DNA from: an uncultured Candidatus Saccharibacteria bacterium
Lineage (GTDB): Bacteria; Patescibacteriota; Minisyncoccia; Phycocordibacterales; UBA9973
NCBI GenBank assembly: GCA_964402895.1
Contig: CAYODR010000002.1
Location: 41,666-105,665, forward strand
Direction of reading: 5' to 3'
Length of the DNA: 64,000 bases
Shown here in pieces: positions 9,519-50,399 of the stretch. Positions within the stretch are counted from its first letter, which is position 1. Every line of letters starts with the position of its first letter. The translations under genes were made by a program, and so were the position numbers. The notes beneath the pieces were generated by a model. The model ran no database searches, was not told where the DNA came from, and worked only from the letters and a program-made list of their open reading frames with translations.

Positions 9519-9605
9519 CGGAACCGGTGGGATTCGAACCCACGAGGGCTTTTACACCCTGCCTCTTTAGCAAAGAGGTACATTCGACCACTCTGACACG
9601 GCTCC
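9519..9605 (-). tRNA. tRNA-Ser (anticodon GCU)
   Basis: Acceptor GGAGCCG/CGGTTCC, anticodon stem CCTCT/AGAGG, loop TTGCTAA, long variable arm, T-arm GGGTTCGAATCCC. Confidence 0.8.
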
Positions 9606-9682: not shown

Positions 9683-10114
9683 ATGAAAAATATTATAAAG
9701 AGAAAAGTTTGTACTTCACAATTTATTATCCGATTATTTATTGGGACCATTTTCTTAGCACATGGTATTGCTAAATTCAATATCGGAATGGATGGTGTTT
9801 CAGAATTTTTTGGAAGTGTATCCATTCCCTTCCCAACATTCTTTGCCTGGGTTGTGACATTACTTGAAACATTTGGTGGACTATTTATTATTCTTGGTGT
9901 TTTTGTCAGAAAGTCAGCAACACTTTTGATGTTTACTATGCTTGTGGCTATTTTTACAGCCAAGAAAGGATTACCCTTAGTTGGCGGATATGAATTAGAG
10001 CTCGCACTTATAGCTGGACTTATACCATTATTAGTACATGGCGCAGGAAGATATTCTATAAAGAAATTCTTCAAGAAAAAAGAGGTACAAAATACTCCTA
10101 TCCCTCAATATTAA
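9683..10114 (+). CDS. DoxX family membrane protein
   Basis: 143 aa, 4 TM; FLAHGIAKF...FFAWVVTLLETFGGLFIILG typical of DoxX. Confidence 0.75.
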   Translation: MKNIIKRKVCTSQFIIRLFIGTIFLAHGIAKFNIGMDGVSEFFGSVSIPFPTFFAWVVTLLETFGGLFIILGVFVRKSATLLMFTMLVAIFTAKKGLPLVGGYELELALIAGLIPLLVHGAGRYSIKKFFKKKEVQNTPIPQY

Positions 10115-10204: not shown

Positions 10205-10294
10205 GGAAGCGTGGATGAGTGGTTGAAATCAACGGTTTACTAAACCGTCAGGCTGTAAAAGGTCTCGTGGGTTCAAATCCCACCGCTTCCGCCA
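10205..10294 (+). tRNA. type II tRNA (Ser-like, encoded CCA), apparent anticodon ACU
   Basis: Acceptor GGAAGCG/CGCTTCC+G+CCA, 3-bp D-stem, anticodon stem ACGGT/ACCGT with loop TTACTAA, long variable arm, T-arm GTGGGTTCAAATCCCAC. Confidence 0.6.
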
Positions 10295-12780: not shown

Positions 12781-12807
12781 ATCACGCCGCCCTTCGGGCG
12801 GCGTGAT
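12781..12807 (+). terminator. rho-independent terminator
   Basis: cacgccgcccttcgggcggcgtg GC hairpin followed by ATTTATATTT. Confidence 0.75.
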
Positions 12808-12814
12808 TTATATT

Positions 12815-12892
12815 TGAAAACAACACAACATGTTTATATTTAGAAACAACATAATATGTTTATATTTAGAAACAACATAATATGTTTATATT
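12815..12892. repeat. 3 x 26-bp tandem direct repeat, each containing palindrome AACATA-A-TATGTT
   Basis: tgaaaacaacacaacatgtttatatt / tagaaacaacataatatgtttatatt x2; upstream of membrane protein-recG unit. Confidence 0.75.
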
Positions 12893-12981
12893 TAAAAACC
12901 TTTTCTAGTGTTTTATATTTTAAAAACTTTTTCACATCTCTTATGTGGCACTTTCAAATTTAAAGATGTATAATATATTTA

Positions 12982-20360: not shown

Positions 20361-20735
20361 GGGGATGACAGGTTTCGATATATAAATGCTTTAAATATAT
20401 GCATACCGAGCATGAATAAACTCGTTAAATTTATTCAAAACGATTAACTGGCAACAGTATCGCAAAAGTAAAGTCACCTTTTAGTGGCTTTGCTCCGGCA
20501 TTCGCTTAAATAAGCCAATCTGGTGTCGTACGAAGTGAAACTTGATAACTTCATTACGGCAAAATTCATCAAGTTATAGTTTTATACTGTCTTGATATAA
20601 AACTGAAAATAAAAGACTCGAAGAAATATCATTTTGTAAGGTTTATAGATTTTCTTTTAAAAAACAAAACCATACTAAGTATGTAGATTATATTTAATGC
20701 CTTATATACACGGGGTTTCGATACCCCCATCTCCA
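20361..20735 (+). ncRNA. ssrA: transfer-messenger RNA (tmRNA, ssrA)
   Basis: 5' GGGGATGACAGGTTTCGA pairs with 3' ...CATCTCC+A (tRNA-like acceptor); T-arm GGGGTTTCGATACCCCC; internal tag ORF ...AKVKSPFSGFAPAFA-TAA; directly after smpB. Confidence 0.8.
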
Positions 20736-20742
20736 CAAAAAA

Positions 20743-23412: not shown

Positions 23413-23760
23413 ATGACAAGAGTAAAAAGAGGAACAACCGCAAATAAACGCAGAAAAAATATTTTATCCCAAGTAAAAGGATATAGATTTGGACGCAGCA
23501 CAAAAGAAAAGATGGCAAAAGAAGCTATTGCTCATGCTGGATCTTATGCTTTTGCACACCGTCGCGACAAAAAGAGTGATAAGCGTCGCCTATGGCAAAC
23601 TCAAATCAATGCCGCAGTTCGTAGTTTAGGTCTTACATACTCAGTTTTCATTGATAAACTAAAGAAATCAAGTGTGGAAGTAGATAGAAAAATCCTTTCT
23701 ACTCTCTCAAGAGAAAACCCTGAGACATTTAAAAAGATTGTTGAAACTGTAAACAAATAA
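23413..23760 (+). CDS. rplT: 50S ribosomal protein L20
   Basis: MTRVKRGTTANKRRKNIL... ; 115 aa. Confidence 0.9.
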   Translation: MTRVKRGTTANKRRKNILSQVKGYRFGRSTKEKMAKEAIAHAGSYAFAHRRDKKSDKRRLWQTQINAAVRSLGLTYSVFIDKLKKSSVEVDRKILSTLSRENPETFKKIVETVNK

Positions 23761-23764
23761 TTAA

Positions 23765-23800
23765 AGCCGGAGACATAGTCTCCGGCTTTAATTATAAAAA
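23765..23800 (+). terminator. rho-independent terminator after rplT
   Basis: aaagccggagacatagtctccggcttta. Confidence 0.7.
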
Positions 23801-23971
23801 GCGCTGAAGTCTACTGACTCCAACGCTTTTTGTGAATGCTTGCTAAGGGGAAAGATTAAATTCCTAATTTAAATCCTTACCTCAGTTAAACTGAGGATTT
23901 TTCTGACTTTTTTTAACCATAGGCAATATTATATTTGGTTTAAGTAAACTATAGCACATATCTGAAAATAA

Positions 23972-24511
23972 TTAACTATTTTTAATTTTCTTAAGCAAAT
24001 TAAAGCTATTAGCATGAATACAATGCCCTAGATAAGAACTTACCTTAGGAATATCTTTGATTTGGATAAAACCATCTTTTTTATTCAAAATTTCATTATA
24101 AAAACTTTTAATATCCATTTTTAAATAAAAAAGTCTTTGCCTATTTACACCCCCGCGAGTAATAAAAAATCGCGCCCTCTTAAAAGCACGGTGTGTCCCC
24201 CTACCAATCCTATTGGCAAAAGAGCTATCCAAAAATTGTTTCTCAAAAATCTCTTCTATTTCATTACACAAAAGATGTTGAACTATCCTGTCCCTAAAAT
24301 CACTAGCAAAAACTTCCCTTGGTGCAGGATTTTTTACTACAAAACATATATGTCTAGATATTTTGTATTCCCCACTCTTTAATTCATTCAACAATTCTAA
24401 CAAATTAGCCTCACGATTTAATTCAAATTTTAAAGCATTTGTAGTATTTTTTTTATTTCTTATACATTGCTTATAAGCCATGTATAAATTTTTCATTGTA
24501 AAAATCGTCAT
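23972..24511 (-). CDS. DGR-type reverse transcriptase, C-terminally truncated (domains 1-3 only, no YxDD)
   Basis: 179 aa; NPAPREVFASDFRDRIVQHLLCNEIEEIFEKQFLDSSFANRIGRGTHRAFKRA matches the conserved DGR RT N-terminal block (FRDRVVHHALCN..E.IFE..F...SYA.R.GKGTH.AL.R); motif 3 YLKMDIKSFYNEI; ORF ends ~50 aa later. Confidence 0.75.
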   Translation of the reverse strand: MTIFTMKNLYMAYKQCIRNKKNTTNALKFELNREANLLELLNELKSGEYKISRHICFVVKNPAPREVFASDFRDRIVQHLLCNEIEEIFEKQFLDSSFANRIGRGTHRAFKRARFFITRGGVNRQRLFYLKMDIKSFYNEILNKKDGFIQIKDIPKVSSYLGHCIHANSFNLLKKIKNS

Positions 24512-24546
24512 ATAATAAATATATTAGACCAAGCAAAAAAAGAATA

Positions 24547-25338
24547 CTAGGCGGCACAGCGGACATACCTCCCATTAGTAACGCTATGCCTATTCACACT
24601 ACCATTATTGAAATTCTGGGGGTAAGCATAGGAACTAGAAGAAGAAGTAGAAGACCAGTAAGCGCCCGAAACAAAGGAAAGGTTCCCACTTTGTGCTCCA
24701 TAGTCATTGATAGCTTTTAGGATTTCAACAGATGGAAGTCTTTTACCAAGTGAAGCACAGGTATTGTTGGCATTAGCCCAATTTAAAAGTGTGGTACTAT
24801 CATTTATATCATTTGCATCTAATGTGATAACTCCTGTTGTGTCTACTCCGTAGTGTCTATTGTTGTAGTATACTGCCACACCGAAGTTTCTAGTCTCTAG
24901 GGAGTCTTCTGGGACATAGTGAGTATTTAATGTGGTATCTGGAACATTTGAAGTTCTAACAACACATCTGATATTTCCTGCTCCTGCAATACTTACGAGT
25001 GCATCTATCATGGGCTGTATTGATGAGTGTGGTGATATACCTGTTTTGTTGTATGCACAAAGTCCTGCAAATGTACCATTGTCTAGGTGGTATAGTTGTG
25101 CTTGAGTTTGAAGATTCTTTAGATTTGATTTGATTGAAGCTACTCTACCACTTGTGCGAGCTGAGTTTAGTGATGCGATAACTACACCTGCGAGGATTCC
25201 GATGATTGCAATCACTACTAAAAGTTCAATGAGCGTGAAGGCTTTATTTTTATTATTAAAAATTTTTAGCGCAGAGAAACTCTTTTTAGAATAGCGCCCC
25301 TTCATTTGTATTTTTGGATGAAAGGTTAATTTTTTCAT
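24547..25338 (-). CDS. type IV pilin-like protein with C-terminal FGE/C-type-lectin-fold domain carrying a DGR variable-region scaffold
   Basis: Start at MKKLTFHPK (25338). Prepilin N-terminus NNKNKAFTLIELLVVIAIIGILAGVVIASLNSA. C-terminal C..LGKRLPSVEIL...GAYWSSTSSSSSYAYPQNFNNGSVNRHSVTNGRYVRCAA ends the ORF. Stop is 35 nt upstream of the DGR RT ORF. Confidence 0.75.
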   Translation of the reverse strand: MKKLTFHPKIQMKGRYSKKSFSALKIFNNKNKAFTLIELLVVIAIIGILAGVVIASLNSARTSGRVASIKSNLKNLQTQAQLYHLDNGTFAGLCAYNKTGISPHSSIQPMIDALVSIAGAGNIRCVVRTSNVPDTTLNTHYVPEDSLETRNFGVAVYYNNRHYGVDTTGVITLDANDINDSTTLLNWANANNTCASLGKRLPSVEILKAINDYGAQSGNLSFVSGAYWSSTSSSSSYAYPQNFNNGSVNRHSVTNGRYVRCAA

Positions 25339-25549
25339 GTTTTTATTATAACATAGATATTTTATAAAAAGTACAATATACTTACCTTGATAAAAACAAC
25401 AAAATTCCAGTATTAGGTTTATTTTTTCCATAATCCTATCATTTTAGCTATTTAATCCTATCATAATGATAGGATTAGTAAAAAAATTTTAAGCTTTATA
25501 TTTATTAAATAAACTTGCATATGATAATATCATATGATAATATCATACT

Positions 25550-25759
25550 ATGACCACACTTTCAGTCCCCCTTACAGCAGAATTAGCTAATCATGTAGAA
25601 AAGTTAGTAGAACTTGGTTATGGCTCAAATAAAGCTGATGCTGTCCGCAAAGCAATACAGGCTGCAGCTGAAGATCAGGCTGTCCAGGCAATACTAAAAG
25701 CTGCGAAAGAAACTCCACTTAGAGGGAATATTCGTGATTTAGCAAATAAAATAATTTAG
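25550..25759 (+). CDS. type II antitoxin (ParD-like RHH)
   Basis: 69 aa; LTAELANHVEKLVELGYGSNKADAVRKAIQ resembles ParD; 2 nt before toxin gene; upstream 24-bp palindrome taatcctatcataatgataggatta and 13-nt direct repeat. Confidence 0.55.
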   Translation: MTTLSVPLTAELANHVEKLVELGYGSNKADAVRKAIQAAAEDQAVQAILKAAKETPLRGNIRDLANKII

Positions 25760-25760
25760 A

Positions 25761-26033
25761 ATGAAATCTATTATTTATGAGATAGAATATACACCTAGTT
25801 TTCTTAGAACATTTAAAAGACTTAACCCTCGTCTCCAAGAGGAAATAGAGGATACTTTAGAAAAACTTAAATATTCAACTAACCATGAAAAATTAAAAGT
25901 TTATAAACTAAATGGTAGATTAAAAAGTTTCTATAGTTGTTCAGTAAATTATAAATATAGAATTATTTTTGAATTTAAAAAAAATAAAATTCTACTTATT
26001 ATAAATTCTGGTGATCATAGTATATATAACTAG
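25761..26033 (+). CDS. type II toxin, RelE/ParE family
   Basis: 90 aa; ...KLNGRLKSFYSCSVNYKYRIIFEF... conserved RelE/ParE core. Confidence 0.7.
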   Translation: MKSIIYEIEYTPSFLRTFKRLNPRLQEEIEDTLEKLKYSTNHEKLKVYKLNGRLKSFYSCSVNYKYRIIFEFKKNKILLIINSGDHSIYN

Positions 26034-27158: not shown

Positions 27159-27779
27159 TTACTTAATCTCCAAAACTTTCTTTCTTAGAGAAGATTTTAT
27201 CTCTTCAAAACTTATCTGCATTTGATTTTTATAAATAATCTCTTCCTTTTCTATATCATCAAAATATACTAACGACTTTAAGATAAGATTAGTATCAAGA
27301 GTAGGTAGTTTTTCTTTTGAATACTTTAAAACATCTGAAAGAGTAAAATCTTTCAAAATAAAATACATATCTACATAATCCTTCATCGCACTACGACTAG
27401 AGATGGCGGAGCATTTCATACAAGCAATATCTAAAATAGAAGCCATTTTAAAATAATCTGTGTTAACAAATGGCTTAATCATCTTGTATTTATAAGACAT
27501 AAAACTTATTTTAATCTCATTGTCTACAATAATTCCTAAAGTATTTTTTTCTTCTTGTACCTTTACTATTCTATCTAACCCAAAAAGTTCTGATATATGA
27601 TCAAACAATTTTTCAGTATCTATGTCTACTTCAGTAAAAAAATCAAAATCAATACTATCTCTATGTCCTATCTGTAAAGCCAATGCTGTGCCCCCAGCTA
27701 AATAAAAATTATATACAGTAATACCTCCAAGTATTGGCAGTATATCTTTTCTCTTCTGATCTAAAATATCCCAATGCAT
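27159..27779 (-). CDS. nucleotidyltransferase AbiEii/AbiGii toxin family protein
   Basis: 206 aa; YLAGGTALALQIGHRDSIDFDFF motif typical of AbiEii (DUF1814). Confidence 0.7.
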   Translation of the reverse strand: MHWDILDQKRKDILPILGGITVYNFYLAGGTALALQIGHRDSIDFDFFTEVDIDTEKLFDHISELFGLDRIVKVQEEKNTLGIIVDNEIKISFMSYKYKMIKPFVNTDYFKMASILDIACMKCSAISSRSAMKDYVDMYFILKDFTLSDVLKYSKEKLPTLDTNLILKSLVYFDDIEKEEIIYKNQMQISFEEIKSSLRKKVLEIK

Positions 27780-27783
27780 AAAA

Positions 27784-28050
27784 TTAAAATCTACTTTTTA
27801 TTGCTGAATCAATACCGTATTTCATTGACCAGTAATTTAAAGATTTTTTATTTAATTCATAAGATTTTTTATTAAATACCTTTTTAATATCATCTTTTGA
27901 GTAGACATCTTGTAATTTATCAGTAGCCTTTTTGGTGCCCAAATTAAGCACATTTAATATAATGCGCTCTTTATCTTTCTCTAAATCCATTTTGGATATA
28001 TCATAAGACCATAAAAACGGCTTAAATTCTACTGGAACAGATCTCTTCAT
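27784..28050 (-). CDS. hypothetical protein, putative AbiEii partner (antitoxin candidate)
   Basis: 88 aa, 4 nt upstream of AbiEii gene; no clear AbiEi wHTH recognised. Confidence 0.3.
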   Translation of the reverse strand: MKRSVPVEFKPFLWSYDISKMDLEKDKERIILNVLNLGTKKATDKLQDVYSKDDIKKVFNKKSYELNKKSLNYWSMKYGIDSAIKSRF

Positions 28051-33727: not shown

Positions 33728-33978
33728 AATTCTTTTAATTTAAATAATTCTCAATGCAATATCTCACACCCCCTTCTTAGACATCATTAAAAATGAAGAG
33801 AAAGAAAGAAATATGGATTACAAAGAGTGCTAAAATACTAACAAAATAAAGCCTTTTTGTCAATTTGAGAACCTTAAATTATTTTATAAAACAAGAAAAA
33901 TCTATTTTTATTCCAAATGCTCCGTATCTTGCCTATGTATTTGGAAGAGAATGTATTATGTCTTATGTATAAAGAATG

Positions 33979-34797
33979 CTAGGCGGCACAGCGTACATGG
34001 CCGGAACTGGTAGTAGCGCCCCTGTACACACCACCATCAGGGAAATACTGGTTGTAAGCGTAGGAGCTTGCTGACAGAGTAGACGACCAATAACCGTCTG
34101 CAAGGAACCCAAGGTTTGTCGTCTCAGATTCACCTTGCGCTCCATAGTCATTGATAGCTTTTAGTATTTCTATTGATGGAAGTCTCTTGCCTGCTGTAGC
34201 GCATCTGTCCATAGCTACTTGCCAATTAGTAGCACCACCATTATCTGCAGAATCAAGAGTGACAACTCCTGTAGTGTCAACTGCGTAGTGTGTTTCGTTA
34301 AAATATACAGCTACACCGAAGTTCTTAGTCTCAAGAGAATCTGCTGGTATAAAATGTGTAGCTCCAGTACTTGGTACAGAAGCAGTACGTACAATACATC
34401 TAACATTGTTTGCTCCTGCAATACTTGTAAGTGCATCTATCATAGGCTGGATTGACGAATGGTATCCTTGAGGAGTACCTAGGGCTGCATAATTATTTAG
34501 ATTTGAAACTTGTCCGCATAATCCTGCAAAAGTACCATTGTCTAGGTGGTATAGTTGTGCTTGAGTTTGAAAGTTTTTAAGATTTGATTTGATTGCTGCT
34601 ACTCTTCCACTTGTTCTGGCTGAGTTTAAAGATGCGATGACGACTCCTGCAAGGATACCTATGATTGCTATTACTACTAGAAGCTCAATGAGCGTGAAGG
34701 CTTTATTTTTATTATTAAAAATTTTTAGCGCAGAGAAGCTCTTTTTAAAATAGCACCCCCCTATTTGTATTTTTGGATGGAAGGTTAATTTTTTCAT
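33979..34797 (-). CDS. type IV pilin-like protein with C-terminal FGE/CLec-fold DGR variable-region scaffold (paralog of 24547..25338)
   Basis: N-terminal ~115 aa nearly identical to the other copy (MKKLTFHPKIQIGGCYFKKSF...KAFTLIELLVVIAIIGILAGVV). C-terminal ...GKRLPSIEIL...DGYWSSTLSASSYAYNQYFPDGGVYRGATTSSGHVRCAA. Inserted between rpsZ and rplE. Confidence 0.75.
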   Translation of the reverse strand: MKKLTFHPKIQIGGCYFKKSFSALKIFNNKNKAFTLIELLVVIAIIGILAGVVIASLNSARTSGRVAAIKSNLKNFQTQAQLYHLDNGTFAGLCGQVSNLNNYAALGTPQGYHSSIQPMIDALTSIAGANNVRCIVRTASVPSTGATHFIPADSLETKNFGVAVYFNETHYAVDTTGVVTLDSADNGGATNWQVAMDRCATAGKRLPSIEILKAINDYGAQGESETTNLGFLADGYWSSTLSASSYAYNQYFPDGGVYRGATTSSGHVRCAA

Positions 34798-34851
34798 GTT
34801 TTTATTATAACATTTATATTTTTTTCAACAAAGACAAAATGTAAAAAACAA

Positions 34852-34876
34852 AAAACCGCTTGATGCGGTTTTTTGT
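34852..34876 (-). terminator. terminator downstream of rplE
   Basis: aaaaaaccgcttgatgcggttttttg. Confidence 0.6.
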
Positions 34877-35410
34877 TTAAGCCTCTTTCTTAAAAGGCAT
34901 TCCTAGATATTCAAAGAATTTTGTTGCTTCTGATTTATCTTTTGCACTTGTTACAAGTGTGATAGATAGACCAAATACATCTCTTAAATCTTCATCAGAA
35001 GTTTCTGGGAAGATAGTGTTTTCTTTAATACCCAAAGTCATGTTTCCAATACTGTCTACTGACTTTTTATCAATTCCTCTAAAGTCTTTTGTACGAGGAA
35101 GCGCTATATGAATAAGCTTATCAAGGAAATGAAGCATTCTTGCTCCGCGTAGTGTTACAGTTAGACCGATTGGATCACCCTCACGAATCTTAAAACTTGC
35201 AACTGATTGTTTTGCTACACGAAGAGATGGTTTTTGTCCTGTGATTTTTGCTAGACGGTCAGCGATAAGATTATTTCTTTCTCTGTCCTTTTTCATACCA
35301 CTACCAGTACCACTTGAAACTACGATCTTTAGAAGTTTTGGAGCAGAAAGTTTGTTTTTATAACCGAAAACTGAATTTGTGTTTTCTTGTTTTGTTTTAG
35401 TAATTTGCAT
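34877..35410 (-). CDS. rplE: 50S ribosomal protein L5
   Basis: 177 aa; operon position after rplX. Confidence 0.9.
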   Translation of the reverse strand: MQITKTKQENTNSVFGYKNKLSAPKLLKIVVSSGTGSGMKKDRERNNLIADRLAKITGQKPSLRVAKQSVASFKIREGDPIGLTVTLRGARMLHFLDKLIHIALPRTKDFRGIDKKSVDSIGNMTLGIKENTIFPETSDEDLRDVFGLSITLVTSAKDKSEATKFFEYLGMPFKKEA

Positions 35411-38768: not shown

Positions 38769-39282
38769 CTAATTTGCTATTTTTACATAGTTTCCAGGAA
38801 TACTATTATTTAAAGAGGATTTTCTACAATTAAGATAGGTATCATATGACATATCTTCGCCAGATCCAGATTCTAGTCTAACAAAAATTATATATCTATC
38901 TACAGAACCAACGGGCGTACACCCCGTATAATCTCTTCTGTAATAAGCATACTCATGTGAATTTGGTAAACTTGAAATATATGGAGATAAAGAGTTAACT
39001 AGATTAGTTCTACCTGAATTACTTAAAAATCCTAAAGTTTCAGGGTAAATACCATTTTCAGCAAAATGCATTTCAAGTGCTGTTTGAATATTTTTAGCAG
39101 TAGCAAGCCTTGCGGCATCTCTCGCTTTACCTCTCGCACTATTTAAGCTTGCTATCACAACTGTTGCGAGTATTCCAATAATTGCTATCACTACTAATAG
39201 TTCTATCAGAGTGAAGGCTCTACTTTTTAGTGTATACCCCCCCCCCTATTTGTCTTTTAGAGTTTGCTGGTAAAATTTTCAT
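38769..39282 (-). pseudogene. type IV pilin-like gene, leader-peptide region frameshifted by a 10-nt poly-G tract (phase-OFF)
   Basis: ATG 39282 encodes MKILPANSKRQIGGG then the 10-G run (39237..39246) puts the pilin body (AFTLIELLVVIAIIGILATVV... from 39191) in another frame; removing one G gives MKILPANSKRQIGGGYTLKSRAFTLIELL. Confidence 0.65.
39237..39246. repeat. homopolymeric C10/G10 tract
   Basis: tataCCCCCCCCCCtattt. Confidence 0.85.
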
Positions 39283-39319: not shown

Positions 39320-39970
39320 TCAAATAGGTCCATTAGACATCCTATAATGAATAGCACCTGTAGATGTATAAGTTATTTTCCCACATCTTCTTTTTGTATT
39401 ATTATCCTCTGAAGATTCGTGCGGATCAAAAATATCATTAAGTTTATTAAAAATATCTAATAAAGAACTCTCTCCTGATGAAATAAAAAGATTAACTCCA
39501 TTAGTGGGAGCATTTGAAGTTGAGGCACAGGTTGAAACCTCATGGAAATTACCATCATTATCATACGCATAATTATTCCCATTATGAGGAAATGGAAACA
39601 CGGGCGCAGAAGAAAGATAATTTGAAAAATTAGTAGTATTTGAAGATATTGCTTGAGCTATAGATGGATTCGATGTACTTGAAGTTAAAGCATAAGTACA
39701 ATAAGTAGAAGCATGGCTATTTCTCTCTTTAGGCCAACAACCTGTTTCTAACAAAAGCATATTAAATGCCAATTCTATACTTCTTAGATCTGATGCAACT
39801 TTTGAAATTCTAGATTTCTCTCTTGCACTATTTAGACTTGCAATTACAACTGCAGCTAAGATTCCTATAATAGCTATCACTACTAGTAGCTCTATGAGGG
39901 TGAAAGCTTTTCTATAGGATGAATACCTAAATCTTATTTGCCTTTTAGAATCCGCCTGCAAATTTTTCAT
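39320..39970 (-). CDS. type IV pilin-like protein
   Basis: Start MKNLQADSKRQIRFRYSSYRKAFTLIELLVVIAIIGILAAVVIASLNSA; 216 aa; conserved upstream motif gtttttattataacat. Confidence 0.75.
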   Translation of the reverse strand: MKNLQADSKRQIRFRYSSYRKAFTLIELLVVIAIIGILAAVVIASLNSAREKSRISKVASDLRSIELAFNMLLLETGCWPKERNSHASTYCTYALTSSTSNPSIAQAISSNTTNFSNYLSSAPVFPFPHNGNNYAYDNDGNFHEVSTCASTSNAPTNGVNLFISSGESSLLDIFNKLNDIFDPHESSEDNNTKRRCGKITYTSTGAIHYRMSNGPI

Positions 39971-40133
39971 GTTTTTATTATAACATATAAAATACAAAGG
40001 TCCTTCGGGATCCATCTCCTAAAATGGAGATAGAAAAAGCTAGAGCATCAATGCTCTAATTTTTGTTTTTATATCTAAAAAATCTATTTATTGATATATT
40101 GATCTTTGGAATTTCTAACAAATACTAAAGCTT

Positions 40134-42929: not shown

Positions 42930-43640
42930 CTATTTACCACATAAAACTCTTCGAATTAGCGTTTTATCCTCAAGAACAGTTGATCCATTATCAAGCCTAA
43001 TCCTAAAAGCTGTATCAGCACTAACAGAAGTCCCTGACCAATATTGAACACTTGATGCATAATTTGCATTGTGAATATCAAATAAAGCTTTCATAGAAGA
43101 TACTCCTGGAACCCTTTTGCTAAGTGACGCACAATAAGCCAATGCCCCATCAAAAGTATAACTGGAAACAGAGCTTGCACTATCTAACTCTAAAATCCCA
43201 TGAGGGTCAGCAGTATAATTAATATCTCTATATAGCACGCCTATACCGAAATCTATTGAATTTAGAGTAGCGCTCCCGATATAACAATTTGCATTTGATA
43301 TAACATTTAGAGAATCTAAAATTGAAACAATTTTTTGATCATTACACAAACCAGCATAAGAACCATTATTATCTAAATAATACACATGTGCTTGAGACAC
43401 CGCATTTCTTAAATTAGATTTAATCGCTGCTATTCTCCCTCTATCTCTTGCACTGTTTAATGACGCTATCACTACCCCCGCAAGTATTCCTATAATTGAG
43501 ATGACGACTAAGAGTTCAATGAGAGTGAAAGCTTTACTTTTTATTGTATACCTCCCCATAGAATTTTTGAAAAATTGATTAACTTTTTCATTGGTTTTAT
43601 TATAACATTTAATAATTTCAAAAAGAAACCTTATCTTCAC
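42930..43640 (-). CDS. type IV pilin-like protein (start uncertain: 43640 or internal MGRYTIKSK at 43559)
   Basis: KAFTLIELLVVISIIGILAGVVIASLNSARDRG...; conserved MKKL-type leader ATG (43591) is out of frame at the GGGGAGG tract. Confidence 0.7.
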   Translation of the reverse strand: MKIRFLFEIIKCYNKTNEKVNQFFKNSMGRYTIKSKAFTLIELLVVISIIGILAGVVIASLNSARDRGRIAAIKSNLRNAVSQAHVYYLDNNGSYAGLCNDQKIVSILDSLNVISNANCYIGSATLNSIDFGIGVLYRDINYTADPHGILELDSASSVSSYTFDGALAYCASLSKRVPGVSSMKALFDIHNANYASSVQYWSGTSVSADTAFRIRLDNGSTVLEDKTLIRRVLCGK

Positions 43641-50040: not shown

Positions 50041-50045
50041 TCATG

Positions 50046-50363
50046 TGTTGTACTAGTAAGCCGAATTCTGTTTAAATGATTATTTATCTAGGATGTAAAT
50101 TACTCTACACCTCAAGCGACACTCCAGAATAAATCTGGCACGGCCTTGCACACAAGTAAGGATTTAGCCGTTTCAATTTTATAGTTACCTATAAAGCTTA
50201 TCCCAAATGGGATACCTCTACCTTTCGGTTTTGGCGTCTCTGTTCGCACCTCGCACCTTGCGATGGATGGGTATTACCCACTACTCTGCTCCTTGATAAA
50301 TCAAGGGTGTGTTCGGACTTTCCTCACATAACCTAAAGCTATGCGCAATCAAACAGTACAACC
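50046..50363 (-). ncRNA. rnpB: RNase P RNA (bacterial type A-like, reduced)
   Basis: On minus strand: P4 strands GAGGAAAGTCCGAACAC (50325..50309) and ACAGAATTCGGCTTAC (50072..50057); GGTGCGAGGTGCGAAC P10/11-like block; P1 pairing TTGTACT/AGTACAA at ends; GC content well above flanks. Confidence 0.8.
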
Positions 50364-50399
50364 ATTATTACTTTACTTGAAATGAGTTAAAAGTAAAGA

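Follow-up and report, generated by a model that had tools for sequence, protein, structure and literature searches.

A probable relic of a diversity-generating retroelement, left without a template repeat, in a Patescibacteriota contig

What has become of a diversity-generating retroelement (DGR) whose template cannot be found? The question is raised by 64 000 nucleotides of DNA from an uncultured Candidatus Saccharibacteria bacterium (contig CAYODR010000002.1 of assembly GCA_964402895.1, positions 41 666 to 105 665), referred to below as the window and belonging to a source contig of 106 kb. A pilin-like gene ending in a variable region (VR1) stands here just upstream of a gene for a DGR-type reverse transcriptase (RT), and a second target gene ends in a similar repeat (VR2). 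Neither is accompanied by a recognizable template repeat (TR). An earlier note, made from the sequence by eye, had concluded that the functional RT and TR must sit elsewhere or that the system is inactive. The reading that we favor, with a probability of about three in four, is that the locus is the relic of a canonical DGR of the type known from bacteria of the Candidate Phyla Radiation (CPR), disabled by two deletions. On this reading the element is of a known kind, its relic ordinary, and no new system is involved.

The components of the locus can be described briefly. Target gene 1 (24547-25338, minus strand), delineated from the list of open reading frames (ORFs) and from Pfam, encodes a pilin-like protein with an N-terminal methylation motif (N_methyl, E = 2e-9) and a DUF1566/Lcl_C-type C-terminal domain (Lcl_C, E = 9e-7, below the gathering cut-off). 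This domain bears VR1 (24547-24690, minus strand), which forms the 3' end of the gene and is homologous to the VR/TR repeats of related elements; the protein terminates in ...YWSSTSSSSSYAYPQNFNNGSVNRHSVTNGRYVRCAA. The open frame extends to 25431, and the start at 25338 was assigned by comparison with the paralogues, MKKLTFHPK being the beginning of the target paralogues and of their homologues. Target gene 2 (33979-34797, minus strand), identified from ORFs, repeats and Pfam, lies between rplE and rpsN; its product is a paralogue of the first (70% amino acid identity) and contains VR2 (about 33979-34122, minus strand). Both targets possess the N-terminal methylation/cleavage motif and hydrophobic helix of prepilin-type proteins, as which their homologues are annotated. 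The RT gene (23972-24511, minus strand) encodes 179 aa and is separated from target gene 1 by a leader at 24512-24546 (minus strand). The distance of 35 nt given earlier between target stop and RT start is exact: on the plus strand the stop codon reads CTA at 24547-24549 and the RT start CAT at 24509-24511.

The absence of a TR from the 64 kb, asserted from inspection, held up under every search applied to it. Ungapped scans of both strands with 144, 60 and 40 nt of VR1 and VR2, in which any mismatch opposite a candidate adenine was tolerated, recovered the VR1-VR2 pair alone; the next best alignment had at least 36 non-adenine mismatches per 144 nt, and no piece of 40 or 60 nt passed besides the VRs. 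Gapped blastn (word size 7, E <= 1) was run with 18 queries, namely VR1, VR2, a predicted TR carrying A wherever VR1 and VR2 differ and 15 TRs of related elements, and its significant matches in the window were confined to VR1 and VR2. The GC-rich motif GGCGGCACAGCG occurs, as had been stated, only at the two VR ends (24550 and 33982; at most one mismatch, 0.01 expected by chance). The intergenic region between rplT and the RT gene (23757-23971), most of which had been described as unlike a VR (23761-23971), indeed has no similarity to any VR or TR and holds terminator-like hairpins alone (23757-23795 and 23880-23896). Thus the window lacks the TR-VR pair expected of a functional DGR (about 100-170 nt, with mismatches almost only at TR adenines). 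It equally lacks an Avd-like accessory gene between target and TR: tblastn with six bAvd-like proteins of related elements gave nothing in the window better than E = 0.09. A full-length relative RT found no second RT in the window by the same method, and no other RT of the family was among the protein-search hits on the 106-kb source contig. Rfam, at its gathering thresholds, reported nothing in or near the locus.

Candidates for a disguised template were also considered and set aside. One VR cannot have served as TR of the other, as 40 of the 50 mismatches between them fall at non-A positions of either copy. The possibility that VR1 is itself a TR or a TR-rich chimera, which came up when relatives' TRs matched VR1 and not VR2 in BLAST, was rejected on the same mismatch count and on adenine content: the VR1 core contains 0.28 adenine, within the range of relatives' VRs (0.19-0.31) and below that of their TRs (0.39-0.49), so that the surviving copy is VR-like. 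A metagenome scan with the VR/TR-shaped pattern GCTTACNNCCAG...CGCTGTGCCGCC yielded a single high-GC contig, where the match lies in an unrelated coding sequence and is due to chance.

The intact architecture from which the locus would have been derived is seen in its relatives. A protein search with the RT fragment returned about 37 homologues; a narrower RT alignment followed by a scan of genomes, restricted to species representatives among which neither the source genome nor that of the closest RT homologue (P0002) figured, delivered 25 loci, nearly all in metagenome-assembled genomes (MAGs) of Patescibacteria/CPR. The N-terminal part of the RT is 56-67% identical to RTs of Paceibacterota, Parcubacteria, Roizmanbacteria and Staskawiczbacteria MAGs, in which the full-length enzyme measures 355-380 aa. 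At 16 related loci the stretch just upstream of the RT gene is repeated some 0.7 kb further upstream and forms with it a TR-VR pair. At 15 of these loci nearly every mismatch falls on an adenine of the RT-proximal copy (for example 17/17, 20/20 and 19/19), the exception being L005 with 8 of 27 mismatches at TR adenines. The order is target with VR, hairpin, bAvd-like gene, TR (122-171 nt), spacer and RT. The gap between VR and TR (548-701 nt) opens with a strong hairpin of 17-20 bp whose 5' arm carries CATTCTCT, and encodes a protein of 115-162 aa matching Pfam bAvd (PF22296). Between the end of the TR and the beginning of the RT there are 25-49 nt (138 nt at L006), and stop-to-RT distances range from 28 to 47 nt.

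When the window is aligned with these loci by MAFFT, the segment between VR1 and the RT matches, as far as the first codon of the RT, what separates TR and RT in 10 relatives. The leader has two parts, of which 24512-24538 (TTTTGCTTGGTCTAATATATTTATTAT) is the counterpart of the relatives' TR-to-RT spacer, while 24539-24546 (TATTCTTT) is common to the flank of VR2. Decisive here is the comparison with VR2 and with L030, a contig of 8.4 kb that is syntenic with the window, stems from a related organism (81-85% nucleotide identity) and carries the positional orthologue of target gene 2. VR1, VR2 and the VR of L030 have in common an identical GC-rich 3' end, reminiscent of an initiation of mutagenic homing (IMH) sequence, which reads ...CGCTGTGCCGCCTAG(T/C)ATTCTTT, and the similarity stops after TAG(T/C)ATTCTTT, 8 nt past the stop codon. 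Beyond this point VR1 continues into the RT leader (TTTTGCTTGGTCTAAT...), whereas VR2 and L030 continue into a VR flank of the hairpin type. VR1 therefore ends exactly where the TR of the relatives ends before the RT, and the 35-nt gap, which had been contrasted with the canonical layout, is better understood not as an unusual architecture but as the scar of a deletion that took hairpin, avd and TR. Because the homology of the three repeats ends where it does, the junction falls inside a stretch that VR and TR normally have in common, and the recombination by which the TR was lost probably took place in the invariant 3' end of VR1 (TATGTCCGCTGTGCCGCCTAG). A deletion ending within the post-TR spacer, to which a MAFFT gap of 8-14 nt relative to some loci might point, is not needed: 35 nt lies within the relatives' stop-to-RT distances, and the homology with L030 ends exactly at TATTCTTT.

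A second lesion affects the RT itself. Alignment with full-length relatives shows its N-terminal 141 aa, with the RT motifs up to LKMDIKSF, joined in frame to the last ~35 aa (DIPKVSSYLGHCIHANSFNLLKKI) at about 24086-24088; roughly 180 codons are gone, including LPIGNLTSQ and YVDD. By tblastn, residues 1-141 of the L012 RT map to 24511-24089 and residues 322-355 to 24085-23984, residues 142-321 being deleted. Pfam RVT_1 accordingly matches residues 71-141 only, with positions 16-82 of the 205 in its profile, and at E = 0.0017 this match stays below the gathering cut-off. The RT had earlier been called truncated. It is defective, but the C-terminal tail is present and the loss is an in-frame internal deletion rather than a C-terminal truncation. 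The intact catalytic core of a DGR-clade RT (LPIGNxxSQ and YxDD) is thus missing, while both retained parts are clearly homologous to DGR RTs. They preserve 50 of the 52 residues at which 18 relatives are all alike, a number close to that reached by the relatives themselves in a leave-one-out test, and 34 further invariant columns lie in the deleted part. Such preservation implies that the RT deletion is recent or that the remnant is under constraint; the decay of the cassette looks recent. The idea that the remnant is kept as a non-catalytic RNA- or DNA-binding protein, or that the locus is the dead partner of a second DGR, located elsewhere in the genome and rewriting VR2 and a third paralogue in trans, is one to which we attach little credence.

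The two VRs have distinct histories. VR2 differs from its L030 orthologue in 17 of the 39 columns where the TRs of L012 and L013 have A, against 9 of the 109 other columns (Fisher p = 4e-6). This concentration is the signature of adenine mutagenesis, visible without the TR, and it marks VR2 as a genuine VR. Variation of the adenine type is thus found, as in functional DGRs, at the 3' end of a target in a DUF1566-type domain (Lcl_C E ~ 1e-6, below the gathering cut-off). The same test applied to VR1 against VR2 gives a weaker result (p = 0.02). VR1 also departs from the TR inferred from VR2 and L030 at 29 of 110 non-adenine positions, so that VR1 and VR2 must have been templated by different TRs; the proposal that both were targets of one TR does not survive this comparison. 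The TR lost beside the RT remnant is the one that served VR1, and the TR of VR2 is likewise absent from the window.

VR2 retains its native 3' flank (33876-33978, minus strand). Flank comparison and folding reveal in it the VR-flank motif ACATTCTCTTCCAAAT and, formed by TTCCAAAT (33939-33946) and ATTTGGAA (33911-33918), a shortened hairpin. This hairpin is the counterpart of the strong hairpin between VR and avd in the relatives, of 8 bp instead of 17-20 bp, and it has been lost at VR1. The 3' flank of VR2 is identical to that of L030 at 98 of 100 positions, compared with 80-92% for the neighboring genes. On either side of target gene 2 the non-coding sequence of the window agrees with that of L030 at 98% (window 33876-33975 and 34817-34916; L030 2843-2942 and 1951-2049), and conserved regulatory or DGR cis elements may reside there.

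In the relatives L001-L022, the TR-to-RT spacer and the 3' coding end of avd form a predicted helix of 25-30 bp, exemplified by L012 (9616-9655 with 9958-9998; avd codons ..LNQAENWKK..). As a duplex it has a free energy of -25 to -50 kcal/mol, where most shuffled controls lie at about -20 to -25 kcal/mol, and its arms change compensatorily between loci. As the avd 3' end pairs with the post-TR spacer, the TR of the relatives would lie in a stem-closed loop. In the Bordetella element an avd:Sp duplex named 'cPRT Stop' is required for cDNA synthesis, and such duplexes have been predicted in 207 DGRs, those of CPR included (Handa et al., bioRxiv 10.1101/2023.10.23.563531). The helix of the relatives looks like a long version of this duplex. 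In the window, the leader at 24512-24538 has no complementary copy, and the spacer arm alone remains.

These observations can be assembled into a simple scenario. The ancestral cassette would have been ordered as a pilin-like target with a 3' VR, the hairpin, a bAvd-like gene, the TR, a spacer of about 25-50 nt and an RT of 355-380 aa. A first deletion, of ~0.7 kb by analogy with the relatives, would have begun where VR1 ends and stopped where its TR ends, taking hairpin, avd and TR in one step; it would most likely have arisen by unequal recombination or slippage between the VR1/TR direct repeats, within their identical 3' ends, and would have fused VR1 to the leader that normally follows the TR. 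A second deletion, in frame and of ~540 nt, would have removed the catalytic core of the RT. The target genes with VR1 and VR2 would persist intact as frozen variants. A cassette that has lost template RNA, Avd, polymerase active site and one strand of the avd:spacer helix is incapable of mutagenic retrohoming, and for the local cassette inactivity, the second of the earlier alternatives, is the part that stands: there is neither TR nor bAvd-like gene, and the RT is short of ~180 residues.

Decay of this kind recurs in the clade and beyond it. In the cassette at L009 (9002-11050), whose target is undamaged, avd breaks off after some 50 residues, no TR exists and the first ~8 codons of the RT are missing, a structure that one deletion running from the middle of avd into the RT 5' end (codon ~9) would account for. 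L027 (5163-7288; also L028 and L029) is a DGR from an unrelated GC-rich lineage with an intact bAvd gene, a TR from 5883 and two VRs, both adenine-diversified, the first with 27 of 28 mismatches at A. Its RT (P0035, 227 aa) has lost the catalytic core by an internal deletion of independent origin, and the same gene is present in seven contigs from NCBI, JGI, ENA and Logan. The closest homologue of the window RT, P0002 (84% identity), ends prematurely after LPIGNITS.

Several points weigh against the relic reading. The best local scores of the 27-nt leader against the relatives' spacers are 24 and 21, where the 99th percentile of shuffled sequences is 22; the similarity is modest and the scar argument therefore mainly positional. 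The recombination mechanism is deduced only from where homology ends, and with the lost TR out of sight the crossover cannot be placed. The inactivity of the local cassette is judged from the sequence of the window. Finally, both deletions lie in otherwise pristine sequence, which fits recent events and equally an assembly artefact or a minority variant.

The last point leads to the explanation that the real genome contains an intact cassette and that the assembler jumped from VR1 to the downstream flank of the TR through the ~29-nt stretch that they share, helped by VR heterogeneity. The junction does fall exactly inside the repeat homology, its surroundings are undamaged, and the VR and TR of the relatives are near-identical direct repeats about 0.7 kb apart. 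On the other hand, ~29 nt is short in comparison with the k-mers common in assemblers, the RT of the closest homologue is also broken, and genuine deletions have occurred in the related cassettes L009 and L027. We regard an assembly jump as quite improbable chiefly because the separate 540-nt in-frame RT deletion is independent of any repeat that could account for it. That the TR is present in the window and merely unrecognizable, being very short, gapped, diverged or part of a non-canonical element, is scarcely credible: indel-bearing repeats can as a general matter escape ungapped scans, yet the gapped BLAST searches and the piecewise 40-nt scans that tolerate adenine mismatches found nothing, and all relatives have their TR of 122-171 nt directly upstream of the RT.

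More can be said for a dead local cassette with VRs that an intact second DGR (RT, Avd and TR) elsewhere in the genome continues to diversify in trans, an arrangement that we nevertheless hold to be unlikely. The adenine-type divergence of VR2 from its L030 orthologue would agree with it, as would the low divergence of the non-adenine positions of VR2 (8%, against about 16% genome-wide) next to a flank 98% identical, the identical 3' end in VR1, VR2 and L030, and the fact that VR2 points to a TR other than the one lost beside VR1. A third target paralogue with the same type of VR (P0039), on the contig and outside the window, speaks in the same sense. Against it stand the absence of another RT of the family among the protein-search hits on the 106-kb contig, the misfit of VR1 to the TR inferred from VR2 and the defective RT of the closest relative, and the rpsN promoter or leader would explain the conserved flank just as well.

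A relic of a canonical CPR-type element, the preferred interpretation, finds its nearest counterparts in the CPR/Patescibacteria DGRs described as 'DGR clade 2' (Roux et al. 2021, PMC8144416) and as the 'CPR set' of architecture B3 (Wu et al. 2018, PMC5758913), to which the layout of the relatives may correspond. With these the relic shares the kinship of the RT and a DUF1566/Lcl_C-type target with a C-terminal VR. For five CPR DGRs, ribosomal-protein genes were noted between DGR-related genes (Wu et al. 2018), as is the case in the window. In contrast to these systems, the window locus has no TR, no avd and an RT without catalytic core. The ancestral order (target, avd, TR, RT) is that of the Bordetella phage BPP-1 DGR (mtd-avd-TR-brt), and the pairing of the avd 3' end is likewise similar in the relatives; however, the spacer before the RT is about 25-50 nt in the clade and 140 nt in Bordetella, and the clade has a predicted helix of 25-30 bp with the upstream arm 110-190 nt before the TR, of which the window keeps the downstream arm alone. 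The decayed cassettes L009 and L027 resemble the window in that core DGR parts have been deleted and target genes spared. They differ in what was lost: L009 is deprived of the avd 3' half, the TR and the RT 5' end without a repeat-mediated junction, and L027 of the RT core alone, keeping avd, TR and two adenine-diversified VRs.

The locus matters mainly for annotation: its two pilin-like genes look hypervariable, yet they are not to be counted as an active DGR, and programs that demand a TR before calling a DGR are right to pass it over. It is at the same time a clean example of how a DGR may die, its own VR/TR repeats serving as substrate for a deletion in which template and Avd go together while the VR stays behind, frozen as one allele. 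Estimates of 'inactive' DGRs in CPR genomes are touched by such a case, but no concept is changed.

The targets belong to a larger group of five pilin-like paralogues, minus-strand genes found both inside the ribosomal-protein cluster and in its vicinity (genes at 24547-25338, 33979-34797, 38769-39191, 39320-40015 and 42930-43640; stretches at 25114-25251, 34573-34710, 39090-39227, 39779-39916 and 43404-43541). Target gene 1 lies outside the ribosomal cluster, target gene 2 between the L5 and S14 genes, two paralogues between L2 and S19 and one upstream of L3. The N_methyl profile (PF07963) recognizes both targets at E = 2e-9 and two other paralogues at E = 2e-8 to 5e-7. A conserved 5' end, TGTTATAATAAAAACATGAAAAA, is common to four of the five, and the TATAAT box that it contains ~6 nt before the ATG suggests leaderless transcripts. 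The third close target paralogue, P0039 (265 aa, 72% identity), which is encoded on the same source contig outside the window, carries a VR of the VR2 type (..YAYRQTFTNGNVSRIATTSNYYVRCAA), and its neighborhood might contain another cassette.

Toxin-antitoxin-like modules flank the relic at 25460-26033 and 27159-28050. The first comprises a HigB/RelE-like toxin (25761-26033) and a small upstream partner with no Pfam match (25550-25759), and is preceded by a direct repeat of the palindrome ATGATAATATCAT at 25520-25548; the second consists of an AbiEii-like nucleotidyltransferase (27159-27779) and a DUF6922 protein (27784-28050). Elsewhere in the window, three tandem copies of a 26-nt unit (TTTATATTTAGAAACAACATAATATG) occupy 12807-12899, with overlapping 41-nt matches of 88-100% identity. 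Two long-arm tRNA genes, one at 9519-9605 on the minus strand and the other at 10205-10291 on the plus strand, make up an inverted repeat of 92 nt (76% complementary) with a spacer of 597 nt. Two ordinary housekeeping RNAs were identified by Rfam as well: a tmRNA (20361-20738, plus strand), which follows smpB directly, and an RNase P RNA of bacterial class A (50041-50364, minus strand).

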